From the NCBI GenBank assembly GCA_016432345.1, contig CP066685.1:496236-560235 (forward strand): a DNA stretch of 64,000 nucleotides, read 5' to 3'. The position numbers and the translations under genes are program-made. The stretch is from Candidatus Levyibacteriota bacterium (lineage in GTDB: Bacteria > Patescibacteriota > Microgenomatia > Levybacterales > UBA12049). The notes under the pieces were generated by a model. The model did no database searches. It worked only from the letters and a program-made list of their open reading frames with translations, and was not told where the DNA came from. Shown here piece by piece: positions 20,048-48,404 of the stretch; the stretch's first letter is position 1; the number at the start of each line of letters is the position of its first letter.

Positions 20048-20752
20048 ATGGAAAAAAAATCAATTGTTATTCTTCATGGGTGGGGATTAAGAGGATCTGT
20101 CTATAAAAATCTTGTTTTAATATTAAAGAAAGAGGGATACTCTGTTTACTTCCCCGATCTGCCTGGGTTTGGAGCAGAGTCGTTGACGAAAGACTCAATG
20201 ACACTCGATGATTATGTAACTTTTCTTCGAAAATTCATAGAAAAAAATAAACTTAAAAAACCAATTTTAATTGGTCATTCTTTTGGTGGAAGAGTGGCAA
20301 TTAAGTATGCATGGCGAAATCCACAACATATTTCCAAACTTATTTTAACCGGCGTACCAGTTATTCGCAATACATCATTTAGAAAAAAAATCGCATTTTT
20401 AATTGCAGTTGTGGGAGGAAAAATTTTGAAAGTTTTTAATCTAAAAATACAAGATATTGGAAAAAAAATCTTGTATAGATCGATTAGTGAATGGGATTAT
20501 TATAATGCGGGACCTCTTAGACAGGTGTTTAAAAATATAATCGGAGAGGAGCTTACTGGATATGCAAAAAGTTTAAAAATGCCAGTTATTTTGGTGTGGG
20601 GAAAAGACGATCGTATTGTTCCGTATACGGATGTTGAGAAGATTAAAAAAATTATTTCTCATGCGCAACCTGTTGTTGTTGCAAATACTGGTCATAGGCT
20701 TCCTTACTTGAATTCTAAAGCATTTTATACTGCGATTAAAAATTTTCTATGA
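20048..20752 (+). CDS. Alpha/beta-fold hydrolase
   Basis: It has the HGWG oxyanion region, the nucleophile elbow GHSFGG and a C-terminal GHRLP (His). Confidence 0.75.
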   Translation: MEKKSIVILHGWGLRGSVYKNLVLILKKEGYSVYFPDLPGFGAESLTKDSMTLDDYVTFLRKFIEKNKLKKPILIGHSFGGRVAIKYAWRNPQHISKLILTGVPVIRNTSFRKKIAFLIAVVGGKILKVFNLKIQDIGKKILYRSISEWDYYNAGPLRQVFKNIIGEELTGYAKSLKMPVILVWGKDDRIVPYTDVEKIKKIISHAQPVVVANTGHRLPYLNSKAFYTAIKNFL

Positions 20753-39251: not shown

Positions 39252-39824
39252 TTATTTAAAAGGGTTTTTAACAAGCCTCATTTGATTAACAGGCAAGTAA
39301 ACAAAAACCGATTTTCCAATTATTTCATTTTCTTTTATAAATCCCCATTCGCGGGAATCAGAGCTTGCTGGTCGGTTGTCGCCCAAAACAAGGTATGAAT
39401 TATTAGACACTGTAACTGGAATACCTTCTTTCATAAAAGCGCCGCCGTATGTTTTAACTTCGGGTGATAAATATGCGCTCTCATCGAGTTTTTGGTTATT
39501 TACATACACATTGCCATCTTTTATTTCAATCGAGTCCCCTGCAGTGCCAATAATTCTTTTTATGTAATCTTTTTTAAATTCCTCATTTTCTTGATTTGGC
39601 GCTTGAAACACGATCACATCTCCTCTTTTTATTTTTTCGATACGTAAAGAAATAATGCTGGTTAGGACGTACTCTTTATCTACGAAAGTTGGGTGCATAG
39701 AAGATCCGCTTACCTGGTATGGCCGAAAAAAGAAAATATAGGTGATAAGAAAAAGAACACCCGCAATAATAATGGTTTGGGCAATATCAAGCAGGTACGA
39801 GAAAATTTTTTGAATAATTATCAT
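39252..39824 (-). CDS. lepB: Signal peptidase I
   Basis: S26 motifs SGSSMHPTF and GDNRPASSDSREWG are present. The ATG at 39824 is preferred because the upstream TTG of the ORF track is itself the TTGACA of a promoter (TTGACA-17-GAGAAT-7-ATG). Confidence 0.88.
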   Translation of the reverse strand: MIIIQKIFSYLLDIAQTIIIAGVLFLITYIFFFRPYQVSGSSMHPTFVDKEYVLTSIISLRIEKIKRGDVIVFQAPNQENEEFKKDYIKRIIGTAGDSIEIKDGNVYVNNQKLDESAYLSPEVKTYGGAFMKEGIPVTVSNNSYLVLGDNRPASSDSREWGFIKENEIIGKSVFVYLPVNQMRLVKNPFK

Positions 39825-39887
39825 ATAATTTATTCTCGCAGAAGCTATTTGCTTTGTCAATTAGAGGTAAAGTATAATAAGTGAAAT

Positions 39888-39959
39888 GGACCTGTGGTTC
39901 AGTGGTAGAGCGTTCGCTTCACATGCGAAAGGCCGATGGTTCGAATCCATCCAGGTCCA
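39888..39959 (+). tRNA. tRNA-Val (anticodon CAC)
   Basis: Manual cloverleaf: acceptor GGACCTG/CAGGTCC, D arm GTTC/GAGC, anticodon stem TTCGC/GCGAA with loop TTCACAT, and T arm GATGG-TTCGAAT-CCATC. CCA is not encoded. Confidence 0.93.
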
Positions 39960-40662
39960 CAGATTGAGATAATCTAATCCATGTTTCTGCAGTTGCCGCG
40001 ATATCTTTCCAGCGTTTTCCTAAAAGGGCGCCGACATGGCTTACTCCTTTGAATTTAAAATAGTCCGCATTATAGTATTTTGCAATTTCTAGACTAACTT
40101 TTGGTGTTATATCAACGTCTGCTCCGCCAGAAATAACTAATACTCTTGCTTTAATTTTTTCTTTGTTTATTGATAATCCGCTTCGTAGTTGTTTAATTAC
40201 TTTTCCAGATTCATCCCGCCACTGCGGGTGAGCCCATAAAATTGTTTTTTTCGTTGCCTCGGGCATGCAGTCAGTGGTATCTTGTAATGTGGATTCTGTG
40301 CTCCATTTTATAACATCCGGCACATGTGTAGATTTTTTAATTGGCCAAGGTGGAGCGCTGTTTACCAATACAATTTTAGCAACATCTTCGACTTCTCCAA
40401 TTTTTTGGGCCAGCCAGCCGCCCATGCTTGCGCCTATCACAATTGGTTTTTGTTTGATTGTCGCAACTATTTTTTGTAGCTGTTTGACATAGTCAAAAAT
40501 ACTAACATCCTTGAGGGGTTTTTTGTTTCCGTTGAGTGTTGGCGCATAGCATCTATATTCGTGTGACTCAAAATATATTTTCCAGTATTCCCATTCCCAT
40601 CCGCCGCCGCCTGCGCCGTGGATAAAAATAATTGGCGGTTTTTTGTTTATTTTTCTTTCCAT
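39919..40662 (-). CDS. Alpha/beta-fold hydrolase, last gene of the TPP-riboswitch operon
   Basis: It has IFIHGAGGGGWEW and the nucleophile elbow GASMGGW. Its start overlaps the permease stop by 16 nt. Its 3' 41 nt are antisense to tRNA-Val. Confidence 0.7.
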   Translation of the reverse strand: MERKINKKPPIIFIHGAGGGGWEWEYWKIYFESHEYRCYAPTLNGNKKPLKDVSIFDYVKQLQKIVATIKQKPIVIGASMGGWLAQKIGEVEDVAKIVLVNSAPPWPIKKSTHVPDVIKWSTESTLQDTTDCMPEATKKTILWAHPQWRDESGKVIKQLRSGLSINKEKIKARVLVISGGADVDITPKVSLEIAKYYNADYFKFKGVSHVGALLGKRWKDIAATAETWIRLSQSVDLDGFEPSAFRM

Positions 40663-41402
40663 GGTAAAAGCATTTTTTCGAGAATACTAACCAAGATAAA
40701 AAGCAGCATGCTCAGTAGCGTTGTTACAAAAATCGTGGCAAAAACAAGTGAAATTGCGTAGGCGTTTGCAGCGGTTTGAATAAAAACACCTAGTCCCTTT
40801 TCTGCGCCAACATATTCCCCAACCATCGCCCCGGTAATGCTGTATGTTACGGCAATTTTAAGCCCTGAAAAAAAAGCCGGGAGAGCGGAGGGGAATTTAA
40901 GTAATCGCATAGTGTCTATATATGATGCGTTCATAGTTTTAAAAAGGTTTATAAATTCTTTATCAATGCGGGAAAATCCATCGGACATAGCAATTGTAAT
41001 TGGAAAGTAACAAAAAAGTGTTACTACAACAACTTTTGACCATATATCAAACCCAAGCCATATTAAAAGAAGGGGCGCAAGAGCAATAATGGGAATAGTT
41101 TGCGATGTTACTAAAATTGGATAGACTGCCCGTTTTACCCATGAAGATGTATCCAGTAAAACCGCAGTTGTTATACCAATAACAATTGCAGTAAAAATAC
41201 CAATAAGCGTTTCTATTAATGTTTGTTGTACGTGGGGAAGGATAATATTCCAGTTTCGAAAAAAAGCTTGCATAATAACAATGGGTGATGGAAGAAGTTG
41301 GTTGCTAATTTGTGACGTTTGCACGAATATTTCCCACACTGTAAAAAGTGTTGTAAAAAGGACAAAGGCAGGACCAAGATTAATGATTGTTTTTAGTTTC
41401 AT
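40647..41402 (-). CDS. ABC transporter permease (ThiX/SsuC/TauC-like)
   Basis: It has 6 TM helices and the binding-protein-dependent permease signature region. Its start overlaps the ATPase stop in an ATGA arrangement. Confidence 0.85.
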   Translation of the reverse strand: MKLKTIINLGPAFVLFTTLFTVWEIFVQTSQISNQLLPSPIVIMQAFFRNWNIILPHVQQTLIETLIGIFTAIVIGITTAVLLDTSSWVKRAVYPILVTSQTIPIIALAPLLLIWLGFDIWSKVVVVTLFCYFPITIAMSDGFSRIDKEFINLFKTMNASYIDTMRLLKFPSALPAFFSGLKIAVTYSITGAMVGEYVGAEKGLGVFIQTAANAYAISLVFATIFVTTLLSMLLFILVSILEKMLLPWKEK

Positions 41403-42160
41403 AGATTAAGAAGTAGCTGTTCAAGTAGTTGTTCGATTTCAACTGTTTTTTTGTCTTTTAGAAACTCGTGTTTTCTTGGTCTTGGAAGGTTAATATTTAC
41501 TTCTTTAATAATTGTTGCGGGACTGCTGCTTAAAACATATATCCTGTCGGAAAGAAGAATAGCTTCTCTTATATCATGAGTTACAAATAAAACGCTTGAT
41601 TTATATGTTTGCCAAACATCTAAAAGCCACATTTGCATAGAAAGTCTAGTTAGCGCATCAAGCGCTCCAAAGGGTTCGTCCATAAGTAGAAACTGATTAT
41701 TAAAAAGTATAGTTCTTAAAAGCGCCACCCGCTGCGCCATGCCTCCAGAAAGTGCATGAGGATAATAGTTGGCATAATCTGAAAGTCCAAATTTTTTAAG
41801 CATGTTACATGCTTCTTGTTTGGCTTTTTTTTCTGAAATGCGTTTTAGAGTTAGCCCCAACATAACGTTTTCCAAAACAGTTTTCCAGGGTAGAAGGAGT
41901 GGTTTTTGCAGCATGTAGCCTGACTTTCCAAGTAGTTTTTGGTTTTTTTGTTTATCTATGTATATTGTTCCAGTGGTTTGTTTTTCAAGGCCCGCAAGGA
42001 TATTAAGAAGTGTTGTTTTGCCGCAGCCGCTTGGTCCAATAATACTTACAAATTCACCATAATTAATGCGCATGGAAATTGAGGAAACGGTGTATGTTAG
42101 GGAACTGTTTAGAGAAAATGTTTTTGATAGATTTTTAACTTCTAGTTTGGGAGTCGTCAT
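41399..42160 (-). CDS. ABC transporter ATP-binding protein (ThiZ/NitT/TauT family)
   Basis: It has Walker A GPSGCGKTT, the signature LSGGMAQRVAL and Walker B FLLMDEPFGALD. The ATG at 42160 (MTTPKLEVKNL) is preferred because the longer ORF overlaps the upstream gene. Confidence 0.9.
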   Translation of the reverse strand: MTTPKLEVKNLSKTFSLNSSLTYTVSSISMRINYGEFVSIIGPSGCGKTTLLNILAGLEKQTTGTIYIDKQKNQKLLGKSGYMLQKPLLLPWKTVLENVMLGLTLKRISEKKAKQEACNMLKKFGLSDYANYYPHALSGGMAQRVALLRTILFNNQFLLMDEPFGALDALTRLSMQMWLLDVWQTYKSSVLFVTHDIREAILLSDRIYVLSSSPATIIKEVNINLPRPRKHEFLKDKKTVEIEQLLEQLLLNL

Positions 42161-42168
42161 GAAGCGCG

Positions 42169-43206
42169 CTACTTGAAAAACTGATTTGTGTATAACTTGG
42201 TAAAATCTAATGTCGTTACTGCCGAGCCTGATGCATCTTTTATTTGGCCTGTACTTAAAATAAACTTTGGAAATTCTGTCCAGGCTTTTTCGTCTTGAAC
42301 TCCCCATGGTTTATCTGGGTCCGTGTAACGAGGACTTAGATATTTTTGGCTTTCGACAACAAATTCTTTGTCATCAAACATTCCTTTTTGCGCAGAGTCA
42401 ATAAGGATTTGCGCCGACTCTTCTGGATTTTGTATAGCAAAATTATATCCTTTGGTGGTTGCTTTGATAAACTTTCTCAAAATCTCTGGCCTTCCTTTTA
42501 TTTGTGTGGGGCCGGAAATAAGGACCGGGGTATAGTAATCGGGAATACCATATTTTATAAGGGAAAATGAAACAAGTTTTACTCCCTGTCGTTTTGCTTG
42601 CACGCCTGTCCAGGCATCAAAAATCCAAACAAAATCAATTTTTTTGGTTTCTAAGGCTTTTATGCCGTCTATATCCAGCATGACTGTTTTAAAATTTCCT
42701 TTTCCATTATTTTTTTTGATCATTTCTGAAATAACTGCATTTTCAAACGGAGCGCCAAACCCGCCATAGATTTTTCCATCAAGATCTTTTGGAGTTTTTA
42801 TGCCAGAGTTTTCTGTTGCGGCAAGAGAGGAGGTGTTATGTCGAATAATTGTGGCAATTGATACCACAGGATTGCCAGAGGCAACAGATGTAACAACGCC
42901 TTCTGTATAACTTACGCCAACATCTGCTTTATTCGTTGAAACTAATATTTCGGATGAAACGTTTCCAGAATAGGGAAGAATTTTAACTTCGATTCCTTCG
43001 TTTTTGTAGTATCCTTTTTTTTGCGCCACATAAATACCTGTGTGGTTGGTATTGGGCGTATAGTCTAGGGCAAGCGTTACTGCTGTCAGTTTGGGCGTTT
43101 CTATTGGCGGTTTTGCAGGTTTTCTATTTTGTAACAAAAATAATCCTACTAGACCAAGAAGAACAATAAATGTTGCAAAAATGTATTTTATAGGTAGTTT
43201 TATCAT
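42169..43206 (-). CDS. NMT1/THI5-like periplasmic substrate-binding protein (ThiY-like)
   Basis: It has an N-terminal anchor and LALDYTPNTNHTGIYVAQKKGYYKNEGIEV, typical of NMT1/ThiY binding proteins. The ATG at 43206 is preferred because the ATG at 43221 lies inside the riboswitch. Confidence 0.8.
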   Translation of the reverse strand: MIKLPIKYIFATFIVLLGLVGLFLLQNRKPAKPPIETPKLTAVTLALDYTPNTNHTGIYVAQKKGYYKNEGIEVKILPYSGNVSSEILVSTNKADVGVSYTEGVVTSVASGNPVVSIATIIRHNTSSLAATENSGIKTPKDLDGKIYGGFGAPFENAVISEMIKKNNGKGNFKTVMLDIDGIKALETKKIDFVWIFDAWTGVQAKRQGVKLVSFSLIKYGIPDYYTPVLISGPTQIKGRPEILRKFIKATTKGYNFAIQNPEESAQILIDSAQKGMFDDKEFVVESQKYLSPRYTDPDKPWGVQDEKAWTEFPKFILSTGQIKDASGSAVTTLDFTKLYTNQFFK

Positions 43207-43292
43207 TTCCTTCGTCGGCATTACCCGAACAGGTTCAAAGGGTCGTCGCCTTAAGCAACCTCTCAGCCCATCTATTGAGCTCCCCTATTTAT
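43207..43292 (-). promoter_or_regulatory. TPP (THI-box) riboswitch
   Basis: The minus strand reads ...AUAGGGGAGCUCAAUAGAUGGGCUGAGAGGUUGCUUAAGGCGACGACCCUUUGAACCUGUUCGGGUAAUGCCGACGAAGGAAAUG. The conserved CUGAGA, ACCCUUUGAACCUG and GGUAAUGCC..CG.AGG blocks are all present. Its 3' end contains the SD/start codon. Confidence 0.85.
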
Positions 43293-43298
43293 GTGATT

Positions 43299-43327
43299 AT
43301 AATAAAACATGTTGATTTGTTTGTCAA
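43299..43327 (-). promoter_or_regulatory. Promoter of the riboswitch operon (TTGACA-17 nt-TATTAT)
   Basis: On the minus strand, TTGACA lies at 43327-43322 and overlaps the TPK stop codon. TATTAT lies at 43304-43299, just upstream of the aptamer. Confidence 0.55.
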
Positions 43328-43965
43328 CTCCGATTTAAAATGTGGACAAAAAGCAATTGTCCTTCCCCCATATCTACAGATACTTCTTTTTGGGTGAATA
43401 TATTACTGATGCCGCGTGATTTGCCAAAAAAAAGCGATTCGTTTTTCAAAGAGTATTTTAGATTTATTGTTGTAATATGAGAAACTTCTTTACTAAGCGG
43501 AATAAGGGAAAGCAGGTCATTTATGTCTCCTTTTATTTGTACCAGCTTTGGACCCTTTTCTACCCAGGCAATAATTGCGCCGTGAATGTACCTAACGGGT
43601 ATATTGGTACCAGCAAGAAGTGAAATGTTTGCTAAAATATGATCTATTCGATTACCCTCGATACCGCCAATAATGTCTATTTCTGTGGCATTATTGTCAA
43701 TTGCGTATTGTATGGCAAGTTCGGTGTCTGCTTCGTTTTTGGTTGCGGGATAAGTAACAAAAACAGTCCCCCTTTTTTTTAGCAAATCGCGTGTTTTTGT
43801 ATCTATAGAATCCATATCGCCAATAACAGCTTCGGGTATATAATTCCATTCCAAAGCGGTTTTGGCGCCAGAGTCGGCGGCGATTATTTTGTCGGCTATC
43901 TTTAGTGATTGGGTAATAATTTTTCCTTTTTCTATCCTACCGCCGGTAAAAATAACGTAGCGCAT
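43324..43965 (-). CDS. thiN: Thiamine pyrophosphokinase
   Basis: MRYVIFTGGRI...IIAADSGA...VIGDMDSI and the C-terminal thiamine-binding beta domain match TPK. The ATG at 43965 is preferred over the TTG at 44004. Confidence 0.82.
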   Translation of the reverse strand: MRYVIFTGGRIEKGKIITQSLKIADKIIAADSGAKTALEWNYIPEAVIGDMDSIDTKTRDLLKKRGTVFVTYPATKNEADTELAIQYAIDNNATEIDIIGGIEGNRIDHILANISLLAGTNIPVRYIHGAIIAWVEKGPKLVQIKGDINDLLSLIPLSKEVSHITTINLKYSLKNESLFFGKSRGISNIFTQKEVSVDMGEGQLLFVHILNRS

Positions 43966-44061
43966 AGAATGTATTCTACAAAAAAAATGAAGCAGTGTAT
44001 ACAACCTATAGTTTGCTTTTAGTTGGAAGAGATGGTATACTTTTGTACTTAATCATAAAAT

Positions 44062-45190
44062 ATGAGAGCAAGACAAGAATTAGAGACAAGACTAAATTTA
44101 GAAAAAAGGGATAATTCTGTTGAACAATATTTAAATGAGATAGGTAGGTATAGTTTGTTGTCTCGCGAAGAAGAGATAGGGTTTGGTAAAAAAGCGGATA
44201 GAGGGAGATATGCTTCAGCGCTACTTGGATATATATCAGGAGAAGAAATTGTTTGTAAGGGGTCATCGCCTGTTGCTCTTGATTTACTAAATGAATTTAG
44301 ACTTTGGCCATATGCCGAACTTGTTTTTGAGGATAAGAAACCAGAGCAAGAAATGAAGTTAGATAGAAGGTTGGCAAGGTCGGTGATAGGAATAAAAGTT
44401 TTAGATGAAGATGCTTTTGTTGATCGGCTTAGGGATTTGCAAGGTTGTTTACAAGAATATGTTTTAGATGGAGTTGAAGCAGAAAAAGAAATGATAAATG
44501 GAAATCTCCGTTTGGTTGTTTCGGTGGCCAAAAAATATATCGGCAGAGGGGTATCTTTTTTGGATATGATTCAAGATGGAAATGAAGGTTTAATAAAAGG
44601 GAGTAAAAAAATATCAATGGGAAAAAGGGTATAAGCTTTCTACATATTTAACACCTTGGATAATCCAGGGAGTAACACGGGCAATTGCCAATTACGGACA
44701 AATAGTTAGAGTTCCTGTGCAGGTGCATGATGACGCAAAAAAAGTCGCTTTTGTAGAAGGAAAACTTATGCAGGAAGGACTTGGACAAGAACCGACAGCA
44801 GAACAAATTGCCGCTGATCCAGCAGCAAAATTAAGCGTGGAAGCAATAAGAAGAGTTATGTTTGTTCGAACAACTATTGGTAGGATTTTAAGTCTTGATG
44901 AGCCGTCAGAATCAGATGGATATGAAGGAACAAAATTAAGTGATTTTGTACAGTCGGAGGACCCTGCGGTTGAAGATGAGGCGCTTAGAAATGTGCAAGG
45001 AGGAGAGGCAAAAAAAATTTTAGGGACTTTTACACCCAACGAGGAAAAAATCTTAAATTTATTATTTGGGTTGAAAGATGGGGTACCAAGAAGAGAATTG
45101 GATGTTGCAGAAATATTGGGTATTACACAACAGCGAGTTAGTGCTGTTAGAGCTAAAGTCCTGAAAAGATTAAGAGATAGTTTAAGGTAA
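44062..45190 (+). CDS. rpoD: RNA polymerase sigma-70 factor (RpoD/SigA-like), interrupted by a 1-nt frameshift
   Basis: Frame 1 (44062-44634) encodes regions 1.2 to 2.2 (NLRLVVSVAKKY, FLDMIQDGNEGLIKG) and then terminates. The +1 frame, open from 44597, continues with VKKYQWEKGYKLSTYLTPWIIQGVTRAIANYGQIVRVPVQV (regions 2.3-2.4) and regions 3-4 up to 45190. The junction lies at AAAAGGGAGTAAAAAAA (44595-44611). Confidence 0.85.
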
Positions 45191-45215: not shown

Positions 45216-48200
45216 TTATAACATTTTCCTCATTTTAAGATAAGATAATCCTGTTGCTCCAAATAACAAAACCCCAGCAATCGGCAAAAAATTTATTTTA
45301 TTTTTTTCTTGCAGAGTTGGTTTATCTGCAGATTTGGATTCGACAGTTTGCTGATCTAATTTTGATTCTTTTTTGAGTTCTTCTTTTGGTTTTGGTTCTA
45401 TTTTTGCTCCCAGCACATTTTCTTTAAAGCCCGCTGCCGCGCCTTGTTCGGAAAATCCAATTGGCGTAGCGGCAATTTCGTTGGAGTAATCTCCTGGGGT
45501 ACATCCATTGCCCGCCCGTACTCTAAAATAATATGTCTGTCCGCCGGAGAGATTTTCTACCACAAAATTGGTTGTTCCTTTTCCTCCAATGTTGGGGTTG
45601 CCATACTGCAATTTTCCAGGCTCTGTTCCATAGGCAATAAGGTAATACGAAATTGGCCCCGCCCCTTCTTTCCATGATAGTGCGACGGTGTTGATGCCGG
45701 CAAAAGTGGAAGTGAGGGTAGGCGCGCTTTGTGGCTTTTCGTCGTTGCAAGTTGCAGCAGAGGTGGAGTTTGAAGATGTAGAAGATGAGGAACTAGAACT
45801 TGAAGCAGTTACTGTCGGTGTTGGTGTCGGAGTCGGAGTTGGAGTAGGTGTTGGTGTGGGAGTGAGCGTTGGGTCGCTGGCAAGGGTAATACTTCGTTCG
45901 TCGGTTACCTGCTCGGGCGAGCCGCGGGAAATAAGGCGGTAGTAGTAGGTTTTTCCAGGCAGCAAATCGGTGATTGTTACAGAATGGTTTTTTGTTTTTG
46001 TTGGTTTTTCGTCGGTTCCATTGTCGTATCCATATTTAGTTCCAGAGCCTTTGACTTTTTTTGACTGGCTGCCAAAAACAACGCGACTATACGATGGTCT
46101 ATCGGTTGTCCAGGTAACAGTAAAAGAAGTCGCGGTATTTTCGGCAACGGTTATTGACGTATCGTCAATTTTTGGGGCGATTTCATATTCTTCTGTGAGC
46201 GTGTCGCTTAGATTACCTGCAGTATCTTTTGCTACCGTTTTGAGTGTTACACTGCTGCCGTCAATTATAATTGGCGCAACGTAGATGAGTCTGGCGCTGG
46301 AGGTGGAAGGATCTGTTCCATCGAGGGTATAAAAAATGGTAGGTTTATTAGGTGCATCAAGACTTGTAATTTCAATTGATCGTGGTTTTAGATATTTATC
46401 TCCTGGAATGTCCACTGTAGGTTTGGTTGGAGGAATGCCATCTGTTGGAGTGGTAGTTTGTTGGTTATTCCATTTGTCTGATGAGATATCTTTAATGCCA
46501 GTTCCTGTTCCATTTCCTTTGAGGGTAACAATCGGTGTTTTTCCTGCGTCATTTGGTTCTGTTGTTTCTTCAATAGTTATTGTAACTTTGTTTTTCTCAT
46601 TGCCATCTCGTTTTGCGGTAACAACTTTGTATCCTTCAACATTAAAATCAGAATTATTGCTTGATTCATTTACTGTGTTCGCGTTTACATCCCGTACAAA
46701 AGTTACCTCAATTTTATCTATTTTGCCGTTGTTATTGGTATCAAGGGTTTTGGTGCTTTTTATTTGCGGTGGTGTGGTATCAGTTGGTGTTGTATCGTTG
46801 CTTTCGCCATTTTGTTTATATCCCAGAGAAAACGTCGCCGGCTCATCATTTTTTGTTTGGCTCGAAATTTTGTTTACAGTTGCGCTGCCAGTTGCTGTAT
46901 GTCGATACGTTTCAAGCTTAAATTGGTTTATGACAGCGCTTGTTGTTGCAACAGTAATGCTATATGTGTCGTTATTTGGTTTAGGTATTAGCAGCATTTT
47001 ATAGTCTGGACTTGTAGTTTCGCTTATTGGATCTTTAATGCCATGCTCTAGATAATAGATAGCGTTTGGTATATCGGTATAGGTGGTTGTGCCATTACTG
47101 CCTGCTTTTTGACCACTGCTATTTGTTAGATATATGTCAACATCTGGGTCTACAACAACTATTAGATACGAAAGATTCGTATTAGAAGGGATAAATCGTC
47201 TCATGGAAAGAAAAGTATCGTTGTATGAGGCTAAAGTTGTCCTCTCATCGTAAAAAGGATCGTTAATATCAAAAGTTGTTCCATTGATTCCCTTGGCAAC
47301 AATAAAATGTCCTGGTTCTTCAAGTATTACTGGATTATTACTATCTAATTGGTTTTTTAATTTAGTTTTGTCATTGTCGCCCCACACAAATTCTAAGGCA
47401 TCAAAATCAGTGATATTATTTACTGTTTTTGCAAGTTTGGATAAGTCGGCTATGGCTGCCCAATTTACTTTGCCTCGTATATAGCCACCATCGCCACCTT
47501 CATAATTTTTTAACCAAAGATTTAGAGTATCTGGTTGGAGATCAGATCCATCTGGCAATTTTTTAATACCATAGTAATTAAGTATCATTGCAGCCGATGT
47601 CATAGCACATCCCCAGCGATTGATTGTTGTTGCTTCTCCAGTTTTTGCCCAATCGGTTGCAGTGTCATATTCTAATCCCTGCCACGGCTCCGAAGTTTGC
47701 TTAAGTAGCGGAACATCGAGCGGAGAATCGATGTTCGTAACAACAATGTTATCAAACCAGACTTCTGAATCTGGATCTGCGCCAACGCTTGCTTGAAGAC
47801 CAATTGTTCCACCATCAAAATAAGGCGAAGAATCCTCCAATTTCCAGATTTCATCATTGTTAATAAATAATTTAATTACATTTTTAGAAAATTCTATTTT
47901 AAAATGGTATGTTTGGTTATCCTGAAAAGAATATGATTTTTGTTCTACTCGATAGTAACTTCCTATAACTTTTTGAAAGTATATAGTTGATCCGTAAGTC
48001 ATAAAGTCATACCAATTAGAGGAGTCTAAATACTTAAATAGGATGTTTCTATTAGCTATAGCTGTGTTTTTATATTCCATATCAAAGCTGTACGAGTATC
48101 CAATAAAGCCAGAAAGATCAAAATTGTTTGGAATAATTTCAGTTGTGCAACTTGGACCGTTTATTCTAATACCAGCCTTGCCATTTTCTATATTCCAAGT

Positions 48201-48404
48201 AGTAGGGATACCCCCGTACAAACAGGACTTTGATGTATTTGAGTATTGTGTGTTTCTTTTAACAGCCCAATTATTTAAATTTCCTGTATCAAAGTTTTCT
48301 TGGAATACTTTATGAGAGGCAAAGCTTTGTGAAGTAAAAAATAGACTAATAAAAGCCAAAAAAATAAAAACAAAAAGAAACCTGAGGGCCATCAGTTTCT
48401 TCAC
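45216..48404 (-). CDS. Large multidomain surface protein: signal peptide, LamG/ConA-like lectin, C39-like cysteine peptidase, Ig/FN3-like repeats, (TP)n/poly-Ser linker, FN3 and C-terminal anchor
   Basis: 1062 aa. The C39-like core carries Cys in RWGCAMTSAAMILNYYG and His in PGHFIVAKG. FYTLDGTDPS is chitobiase-C-like. TVTWTTDRPSYSRVVFG and LSWKEGAGPISYYLIAYG are FN3-like. The C-terminus LPIAGVLLFGATGLSYLKMRKML is a hydrophobic segment followed by a basic tail. Confidence 0.8.
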   Translation of the reverse strand: MKKLMALRFLFVFIFLAFISLFFTSQSFASHKVFQENFDTGNLNNWAVKRNTQYSNTSKSCLYGGIPTTWNIENGKAGIRINGPSCTTEIIPNNFDLSGFIGYSYSFDMEYKNTAIANRNILFKYLDSSNWYDFMTYGSTIYFQKVIGSYYRVEQKSYSFQDNQTYHFKIEFSKNVIKLFINNDEIWKLEDSSPYFDGGTIGLQASVGADPDSEVWFDNIVVTNIDSPLDVPLLKQTSEPWQGLEYDTATDWAKTGEATTINRWGCAMTSAAMILNYYGIKKLPDGSDLQPDTLNLWLKNYEGGDGGYIRGKVNWAAIADLSKLAKTVNNITDFDALEFVWGDNDKTKLKNQLDSNNPVILEEPGHFIVAKGINGTTFDINDPFYDERTTLASYNDTFLSMRRFIPSNTNLSYLIVVVDPDVDIYLTNSSGQKAGSNGTTTYTDIPNAIYYLEHGIKDPISETTSPDYKMLLIPKPNNDTYSITVATTSAVINQFKLETYRHTATGSATVNKISSQTKNDEPATFSLGYKQNGESNDTTPTDTTPPQIKSTKTLDTNNNGKIDKIEVTFVRDVNANTVNESSNNSDFNVEGYKVVTAKRDGNEKNKVTITIEETTEPNDAGKTPIVTLKGNGTGTGIKDISSDKWNNQQTTTPTDGIPPTKPTVDIPGDKYLKPRSIEITSLDAPNKPTIFYTLDGTDPSTSSARLIYVAPIIIDGSSVTLKTVAKDTAGNLSDTLTEEYEIAPKIDDTSITVAENTATSFTVTWTTDRPSYSRVVFGSQSKKVKGSGTKYGYDNGTDEKPTKTKNHSVTITDLLPGKTYYYRLISRGSPEQVTDERSITLASDPTLTPTPTPTPTPTPTPTPTVTASSSSSSSSTSSNSTSAATCNDEKPQSAPTLTSTFAGINTVALSWKEGAGPISYYLIAYGTEPGKLQYGNPNIGGKGTTNFVVENLSGGQTYYFRVRAGNGCTPGDYSNEIAATPIGFSEQGAAAGFKENVLGAKIEPKPKEELKKESKLDQQTVESKSADKPTLQEKNKINFLPIAGVLLFGATGLSYLKMRKML
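45813..45863 (-). repeat. Coding hexanucleotide repeat encoding (Thr-Pro)8-Thr linker, followed by a poly-Ser run
   Basis: TPTPTPTPTPTPTPTPT is encoded with varied synonymous codons. The adjacent SSSSSSSSTSS run is at about 45769-45810. Confidence 0.9.

Follow-up and report, generated by a model that had tools for sequence, protein, structure and literature searches.

What does a bacterium with a small genome import when a thiamine pyrophosphate (TPP) riboswitch precedes an ATP-binding cassette (ABC) transporter of the ThiXYZ type, and why does the same operon end in a gene for an α/β hydrolase? The question is raised by a 64,000-nucleotide stretch of contig CP066685.1 (positions 496,236 to 560,235; hereafter the window, with 37% GC) from Candidatus Levyibacteriota, a groundwater bacterium of the candidate phyla radiation (CPR). 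On the minus strand, an RF00059 aptamer is followed in order by genes for a substrate-binding protein, an ABC ATPase, a permease and the hydrolase, with a thiamine pyrophosphokinase (TPK) gene next to them. CPR bacteria rely on scavenged cofactors, and their acquisition of vitamin B1 is poorly documented. A first-pass annotation, made from the letters of the sequence, had proposed that the transporter imports the pyrimidine moiety of thiamine (formylaminopyrimidine, FAMP, or hydroxymethylpyrimidine, HMP) and that the hydrolase replaces YlmB or TenA. Our analysis points to a different cargo: very likely the locus serves, under riboswitch control and together with TPK, to import thiamine itself. 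For the hydrolase, the most plausible reading is a cytoplasmic esterase with an accessory role and under regulation by TPP.

An Rfam scan of the whole window identifies one riboswitch only, RF00059, with a score of 67.2 bits against a gathering score of 54.3 (E = 4.9e-11). The full model is matched (positions 1-105 of 105) and directly abuts the start codon of the binding-protein gene, which falls inside the match in the window and in two related loci, L001 and L081. The core motifs that contact the ligand are present, with CUGAGA in J3/2 and ACCUG...GGGUAAUGCC...CG.AGG in P4/P5, and both are invariant across the window, L001, L081 and L095. RF00059 matches also stand ahead of the homologous binding-protein genes of L095 (64.3 bits), L173 (59.9 bits), L001 (51.5 bits) and L081 (46.1 bits); in the last two a longer P3 stem brings the score just below the gathering threshold. 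Rfam scans likewise place the L173, L174 and L175 operons under TPP-riboswitch control. A MAFFT alignment of four aptamers is wrong in the variable P3 stem, and the strand assignments given here are those of the covariance-model alignment.

This alignment assigns the conserved CGAAGGAA to the 3' strand of P4 and the following junction, and AUGAU, which includes the start codon AUG (43206-43204), to the 3' strand of P1. Within the 3' part of the aptamer match, CGAAGGAAAUG contains an AGGA motif together with the start codon, and AUG follows AGGA or AGGGA after 2-7 nucleotides in the window and its riboswitch-bearing relatives. There is no room for a terminator, and no terminator-like element was found on the operon strand in 39700-44300; the most economical mechanism would thus be that the folded aptamer itself covers the ribosome-binding region. 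Several features weigh against it. P1 is weak in the covariance-model alignment, with two to three of its five pairs non-canonical; only 2 nucleotides separate AGGA from AUG in the window, a short distance for a Shine-Dalgarno site; and the free-energy folds of four relatives are mutually inconsistent, with z-scores of -0.6 to -1.8. For the window, the minimum-free-energy fold contains a 10-bp closing helix that pairs GUUUUAUUAU with AUGAUAAAAC and includes the AUG. We do not rely on this helix, given the inconsistent folds of the relatives and the overlap of its 5' strand with the predicted -10 hexamer. Because of this overlap the 5' strand is perhaps not transcribed; only transcripts that read through from the TPK gene would include it. 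The promoter-like site, which comes from a consensus scan only and whose consensus may not be that of the host sigma factors, overlaps the TPK stop codon and ends about 3 nucleotides before the aptamer match.

The genes behind the aptamer form a complete ThiXYZ-type architecture, in which an NMT1-family protein, a permease and an ATPase are contiguous or overlapping. The ATPase ATG (42160) lies 8 nucleotides past the binding-protein stop codon, the stop codon of the ATPase gene and the start codon of the permease gene overlap as ATGA, and the hydrolase ATG (40662) lies 16 nucleotides inside the permease open reading frame (ORF). As called, the binding-protein ORF spans 42169-43221 and the ATPase ORF 41399-42307, and the long N-terminal extensions of both are ORF-finder artefacts. 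The probable starts are ATG 43206 for the binding protein and ATG 42160 for the ATPase. The former is conserved (MIKLPIKY in the window, MKKLPI in L001), and the in-frame upstream ATG at 43221 is not present in relatives. The window ATPase shares 65-76% identity with its counterparts in L001, L081 and L095.

The binding protein provides the first indication of the cargo. It matches Pfam NMT1 at 2.7e-66 (224 bits), and the best match among all PDB sequences is the thiamin-bound protein 4NMY (E = 1.1e-67, 231.7 bits, 44.6% identity over 280 aligned residues). Bacillus halodurans ThiY, which binds FAMP (3IX1), scores much lower (E = 5.4e-29, 104.5 bits, 28.1% identity). The subfamily is a large one: a threshold of E <= 1e-20 yields 3446 proteins, many of them from Ktedonobacteria and Patescibacteria. 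Closeness to 4NMY and the linkage to TPK described below lead us to read the ligand as thiamine, and the protein is probably thiamine-binding. It counts against this assignment that the specificity is deduced from sequence and from TPK linkage.

The TPK gene supplies the second indication. The protein exceeds the TIGR01378 cut-off of 76.4 with 151.3 bits and contains both PF04263 (85.7 bits) and PF04265 (50.4 bits). In the window the gene is outside riboswitch control because it lies upstream of the riboswitch. In L001, L081, L093, L095, L173 and L177, TPK is inside the operon (L001:10657-11331, L081:8720-9358, L095:8693-9346, L173:8509-9183), and in L174, a non-CPR locus of 51% GC, it is adjacent and convergent. 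It directly follows the hydrolase gene in L001, L081, L093, L095 and probably also in the fragment L109, so that the full operon in relatives consists of riboswitch, binding protein, ATPase, permease, hydrolase and TPK. The window TPK is only 35-40% identical to the in-operon enzymes of its closest relatives (L001, L081, L095, L173), which are 62-72% identical among themselves; it shares 52% identity with the TPK of L177 and 43% with that of L174. The 3' boundary of the window operon is tRNA-Val(CAC), and a syntenic tRNA lies 3' of TPK in L001, L081, L095 and L173. The original TPK gene was apparently lost by deletion from its place between the hydrolase gene and tRNA-Val, its role passing to a TPK of a different lineage that would escape riboswitch control. 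In L173, the 3' end of the TPK gene overlaps the syntenic tRNA by 41 nucleotides.

The enzymes of pyrimidine salvage are missing from these surroundings. Scans of 53 ORFs (48 of them outside the operon) identified no TenA, M20/YlmB-like, thiD, thiE or thiM gene in the operon or the 64 kb window, and no members of the TenA, M20, ThiD and ThiE families were found in the related loci L081, L083, L173 and L177. Since TPK acts only on intact thiamine, the failure to find these genes argues that the core module imports thiamine itself. The presence of TPK in relatives' operons and the existence of two lineages without the hydrolase (see below) point the same way, and we conclude that the predicted function of the core module is import of intact thiamine followed by pyrophosphorylation, and not pyrimidine salvage. 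Much of the first-pass annotation agrees with these results. The aptamer that it had placed at 43292-43207 lies inside the RF00059 match, and the matches to NMT1, ABC_tran and BPD_transp_1 in contiguous genes bear out its ThiXYZ-like importer. It had also correctly described a translationally coupled α/β hydrolase, an operon without ylmB or tenA, and an adjacent TPK that would complete a minimal salvage route. Its proposal of translational control through an SD-like AGGA and start codon in the 3' strand of the aptamer remains likely.

The hydrolase is predicted to be a catalytically intact, cytoplasmic, carboxylesterase-like serine hydrolase. It matches Abhydrolase_6 (2.1e-11, 45.4 bits against a cut-off of 26.3) and Abhydrolase_1 (7.8e-11). 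The catalytic triad of Ser79 (in the nucleophile elbow GASMGG), Asp182 and His209 is invariant in 53 homologues, as is an HGAGGG oxyanion-hole motif; in the cap-domain motif WRDESG, W148, R149, E151 and S152 are invariant and D150 nearly so. An AlphaFold2 model has a mean predicted local distance difference test (pLDDT) score of 94.3 and a predicted template modelling (pTM) score of 0.91. Only the last 16 residues (SQSVDLDGFEPSAFRM) are singled out as low-confidence; this tail is not found in homologues and is encoded antisense to tRNA-Val(CAC), whose gene the hydrolase ORF overlaps by 41-42 nucleotides (39919-39960). The nearest solved folds are those of SABP2, hydroxynitrile lyases, polyneuridine aldehyde esterase (PNAE) and monoacylglycerol lipases, at about 16% identity and a TM-score of about 0.7. 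Foldseek matches of the model have E-values of about 1e-14 to 1e-12, and the best PDB profile match is SABP2 (E = 1.2e-12). All NCBIfam equivalogs fall far below their cut-offs for this protein, including the rejected assignments as BioH (15.6 bits against 206.95) and MenH (19.3 bits against 208.55); the resemblance to methylesterases of the BioH/MenH/SABP2 type is one of fold only. No signal peptide was found in 15 CPR-clade hydrolases, including that of the window, and signal-peptide or lipoprotein-like N-termini occur in at least 11, and up to about 17, of 38 non-CPR homologues. No characterised member was found for the HGAGGG/WRDESG family (about 370 species-level homologues), and literature searches for an α/β hydrolase tied to TPP riboswitches or thiamine salvage returned nothing relevant. 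The window also encodes a second α/β hydrolase at 20048-20752 (+; Abhydrolase_1 8.3e-28), located in the mur/dcw cluster, where a GlmS-like gene and a Mur ligase gene flank it. It is a distant protein, with 31% identity to the operon hydrolase over 99 residues.

Relatives of the operon hydrolase number 373 among GTDB species representatives, mainly in Armatimonadota, Chloroflexota (Ardenticatenaceae, Caldilineaceae) and Xanthomonadales/Lysobacterales. A low-GC clade of CPR-like loci (36-45% GC) also carries it, with two further members, L093 and L095, contributed by a metagenome scan. Throughout this clade the hydrolase gene immediately follows the thi-type permease gene (8 of 8 lineages with readable context), and the two ORFs overlap in all but L091, which has a 9-nucleotide gap. 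The arrangement persists as identity to the window protein declines from 74% (L081), 71% (L095) and 70% (L001 and L093) to 55% (L083-85), 52% (L090) and 47% (L091). It also persists as the downstream gene varies: a tRNA in the window, a toxin-antitoxin pair in L083 and nothing in L090, with TPK absent from the hydrolase neighbourhood in the latter two. The genes have diverged alike, with identities of 70-74% for the hydrolase, 72-79% for the permease, 65-76% for the ATPase and 69-85% for the binding protein. The linkage of hydrolase to permease is real and old, and it goes back to a single ancestral insertion.

Two lineages lack the gene. The L173 operon encodes the binding protein, ATPase, permease and TPK without the hydrolase, and L177 has the same composition. 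Flanking synteny of L173 is shared on both sides: one flank carries a sigma-70 gene and an ORF of 256 residues that belongs to no known family, the other the genes for signal peptidase, ParB, L27, L21, RodA and IleRS. In neighbour-joining trees of concatenated permease and ATPase (526 columns, 100 bootstrap replicates), L173 is sister to the hydrolase-bearing L081 (100/100 bootstraps), and the pair falls within a larger clade that also holds the window, L001 and L095 (100/100 bootstraps). Nested among hydrolase bearers, L173 lost the gene secondarily. The hydrolase is dispensable, since sister lineages run the operon without it.

Outside CPR the context of the family is different. Some 82 non-CPR contexts were examined, made up of 79 non-Levyibacteriota genome loci together with L086, L088 and L092, and none of them has a TPP aptamer, a ThiXYZ-like gene or TPK near the hydrolase. 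A regular-expression scan for the two TPP motifs of highest conservation, run over all loci retrieved (1.26 Mb, then 1.89 Mb), placed aptamers only in Levyibacteriota-like loci, and an Rfam scan found nothing in seven non-CPR hydrolase loci (133 kb), the only ones to which the covariance model was applied. In Xanthomonadales the hydrolase homologue has an OsmC-like protein and a glycine-zipper lipoprotein as neighbours, five gammaproteobacterial loci have a fructosamine kinase, and elsewhere no neighbour is conserved. None of these genes tells us anything about thiamine, and neighbour clustering at 80 genome loci yielded mostly antisense ORF artefacts in high-GC genomes. The fructosamine-kinase family gene (PF03881) lies directly upstream of the hydrolase homologue in L016, L017, L030, L086 and L087, at a distance of 11 nucleotides in the last two, and may be a clue to the ancestral substrate of the hydrolase family. 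One contig labelled 'Patescibacteria group bacterium' (L046, DATMVT010000258.1) has 65% GC and Xanthomonadales-type neighbours of the hydrolase homologue, and is probably mis-binned.

What the hydrolase does can be weighed against this background. In the model favoured by the first-pass annotation, ThiXYZ imports FAMP, an aminopyrimidine or HMP, and the hydrolase replaces the YlmB deformylase and/or TenA. The binding protein does belong to the same Pfam family as the FAMP-binding ThiY, and the operon has neither ylmB nor tenA. Some α/β hydrolases are amidases or formamidases. In addition, many users of FAMP lack a recognisable YlmB (PMC10470507). However, the binding protein is far closer to 4NMY, and TPK, for which pyrimidines are no substrate, is the sole thiamine enzyme linked to the transporter in any of the lineages. 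The model would require TenA, ThiD, ThiE and a source of thiazole, none of which was found in the 64 kb window or the related loci, and operons without the hydrolase exist (L173, L177). To our knowledge, CPR genomes generally lack cofactor biosynthesis. The pyrimidine model is the least supported reading and we give it very little credence; the pyrimidine importer of the first-pass annotation gives way to a probable thiamine importer, and the hydrolase probably has a role other than that of a YlmB/TenA replacement. The check that the first-pass annotation had proposed, whether the hydrolase also occurs with THI-box operons elsewhere, gave a mixed answer: it does so in Levyibacteriota-like genomes and not in the other loci examined. 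A different thiamine-related task, such as removal of a toxic analogue or damaged vitamer or dephosphorylation of imported thiamine monophosphate (TMP) for TPK, would fit the co-regulation of the hydrolase with uptake, and organisms that have only TPK cannot use TMP directly. Yet Ser-Asp-His α/β hydrolases are not typical phosphatases, the locus shows no analogue-resistance context, and there is no thiamine linkage outside the clade. We consider such a task improbable, if somewhat less so than pyrimidine salvage.

A more serious competitor is a general-purpose esterase that was acquired horizontally and is co-transcribed in the thiamine operon of a compact genome without any role in thiamine metabolism. 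The closest solved relatives are generic carboxylesterases and lipases, as such an enzyme would lead one to expect. The remaining evidence for it also weighs against a specific thiamine function. About 370 homologues from Armatimonadota, Chloroflexota and Xanthomonadales share identical cap-domain and active-site motifs with the window protein, and together with the absence of thiamine context in the roughly 82 outside loci, where neighbours are of other kinds or variable, this indicates that the ancestral substrate of the family was probably not thiamine-specific and favours a generic esterase riding in the operon. L173 lost the gene and nothing took its place, L177 lacks it too, and the linkage count of 8 out of 8 represents one insertion, not eight independent events. 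On the other hand, the hydrolase has kept the same permease-overlapping slot even where identity is as low as 47% and despite three different rearrangements downstream, stands between two functionally linked genes in five lineages, and is as conserved in sequence as the transporter. This pattern of retention favours an accessory function related to thiamine. A passenger without such a function is a real possibility, although we would not expect it. The most specific proposal is that the HGAGGG/WRDESG hydrolase is a thiamine-salvage enzyme, a cytoplasmic esterase or amidase that frees thiamine from an imported masked or modified form of B1 for TPK; taken alone, we regard it as rather unlikely. 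For unmasking of a thiamine derivative and other thiamine-linked hydrolase roles combined, the balance tips slightly in favour.

The preferred account is therefore one of an intact-thiamine import module with an accessory hydrolase. When TPP is abundant, the aptamer would fold, and ribosome loading may be blocked because the AGGA and AUG of the binding-protein gene lie in the 3' strands of P4 and P1. Expression of the coupled ATPase, permease and hydrolase would then fall along with that of the binding protein. When TPP is scarce, the membrane-anchored ThiY-family protein would capture thiamine for import by the ThiX/ThiZ-like ABC system, and TPK would convert it to TPP. The hydrolase gene would have been inserted between permease and TPK in the ancestor of the clade, and the enzyme may unmask a co-imported thiamine-related ester or amide to give usable vitamin, which would widen the range of the importer. 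Taken as a whole, as a riboswitch-controlled intact-thiamine salvage module with a hydrolase acting on such an ester or amide, this account has about an even chance of being right.

The locus represents a compact import-and-activate module on a less-studied, thiamin-binding branch of the ThiY/NMT1 family, and it corrects the habit of annotating every ThiXYZ system as a pyrimidine importer. If the hydrolase acts on a thiamine derivative, it would define both a salvage step not described before and a vitamer newly recognised as exchangeable. Ultra-small CPR bacteria would then be drawing on this vitamer from their environment, and secreted homologues in other phyla might process it outside the cell. 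If it does not, the operon is a clean case of gene hitchhiking under riboswitch control in a streamlined genome.

Table 1. Features of the thiamine locus, in coordinates of the window
Feature	Position	Strand	Evidence
Thiamine pyrophosphokinase (TPK/ThiN)	43324..43965	-	TIGR01378, TPK_catalytic, TPK_B1_binding
Promoter-like site, TTGACA-17 nt-TATTAT	43299..43327	-	Best consensus match in 39700-44300, 11/12 positions
TPP riboswitch aptamer (THI element)	43190..43296	-	RF00059
Substrate-binding protein, ThiY-like NMT1/THI5 family, predicted N-terminal membrane anchor	42169..43206	-	Pfam NMT1
ABC transporter ATPase, ThiZ-like	41399..42160	-	ABC_tran 7.6e-31, 108 bits
ABC transporter permease, ThiX-like	40647..41402	-	BPD_transp_1 9.7e-33, 113.9 bits
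α/β-fold serine hydrolase, 247 residues	39919..40662	-	Abhydrolase_6, Abhydrolase_1
tRNA-Val(CAC), convergent	39888..39960	+	Rfam tRNA 70.9 bits; ARAGORN

Other parts of the window merit brief description. The sigma-70 gene at 44062-45190 (+) is split into two ORFs with a frameshift near 44610-44720; tblastn with the intact L081 orthologue aligns residues 60-223 in one frame and 222-401 in another. The split gene could be a pseudogene, an assembly error or a case of recoding. Beyond it, at 45216-48404 (-), lies the gene for a predicted surface protein of 1062 residues. It combines Peptidase_C39_2, Fn3, CHB_HEX_C and purple-acid-phosphatase N-terminal domains with a (TP)n linker and an anchor at the C-terminus. 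In L173, an orthologue with this set of domains is found beside the sigma-70 gene adjoining the operon, and L081 has an ORF of the same length (1046 residues) at the corresponding position, with no Pfam matches on record. A complete dcw/mur cluster occupies 9933-30824 (+) and encodes a penicillin-binding protein (PBP), MurE/F-like ligases, MurB, MurA, GlmU-like, GlmS, FemAB, MraY, FtsW, MurG, FtsA and FtsZ. The window ends carry pyrE, pyrF and pyrD-like pyrimidine biosynthesis genes and F-type ATP synthase genes. The cluster and the pyrimidine genes show that the organism has kept peptidoglycan synthesis and some nucleotide synthesis despite its small genome.

Among known proteins, the hydrolase is most readily compared with carboxylesterases such as SABP2, MES, PNAE, BioH and the monoacylglycerol lipases. 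It shares with them a small-cap fold, the Ser-Asp-His triad and the GxSxG elbow, but identity is only about 16%, and the invariant HGAGGG and WRDESG motifs belong to its own family. The Bacillus ThiXYZ-YlmB-TenA system, which salvages base-degraded thiamine (Jenkins et al. 2007; Bale et al. 2010, as cited in PMC5627462), likewise combines an NMT1-family binding protein, a permease and an ATPase under a THI-box/TPP riboswitch. That pathway needs YlmB (an M20 amidohydrolase), TenA, ThiD and ThiE, none of which was found in the 64 kb window, whereas the enzyme linked to the transporter here is TPK, implying intact thiamine as the substrate.

The closest parallel to the binding protein comes from Clostridioides difficile 630, whose ABC transporter binding protein 4NMY was deposited with thiamin bound (PMC10586155). 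In C. difficile a TPP riboswitch lies upstream of an ABC transport operon (PMC11477304), which we infer to be the operon encoding 4NMY. Both systems employ an NMT1-family binding protein, the two being 44.6% identical; neither an α/β hydrolase nor a TPK is reported there (PMC10586155, PMC11477304), while the window has both. In its logic the module resembles the minimal salvage routes of thiamine auxotrophs, in which ThiT, ThiBPQ or PnuT is combined with TPK/ThiN and a TPP riboswitch: import is followed by one-step pyrophosphorylation under TPP feedback, and the four-gene operons of L173 and L177 match this scheme exactly. It differs in using an NMT1-type binding protein in place of TbpA or energy-coupling factor (ECF)-type ThiT, and in the extra hydrolase gene found in part of the clade. 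The riboswitch, the ThiXYZ-type importer and TPK are thus of kinds already known; what is new is the evidence for this ThiY branch as a thiamine rather than a pyrimidine system, and the HGAGGG/WRDESG hydrolase family embedded in the thiamine operon of one CPR clade.

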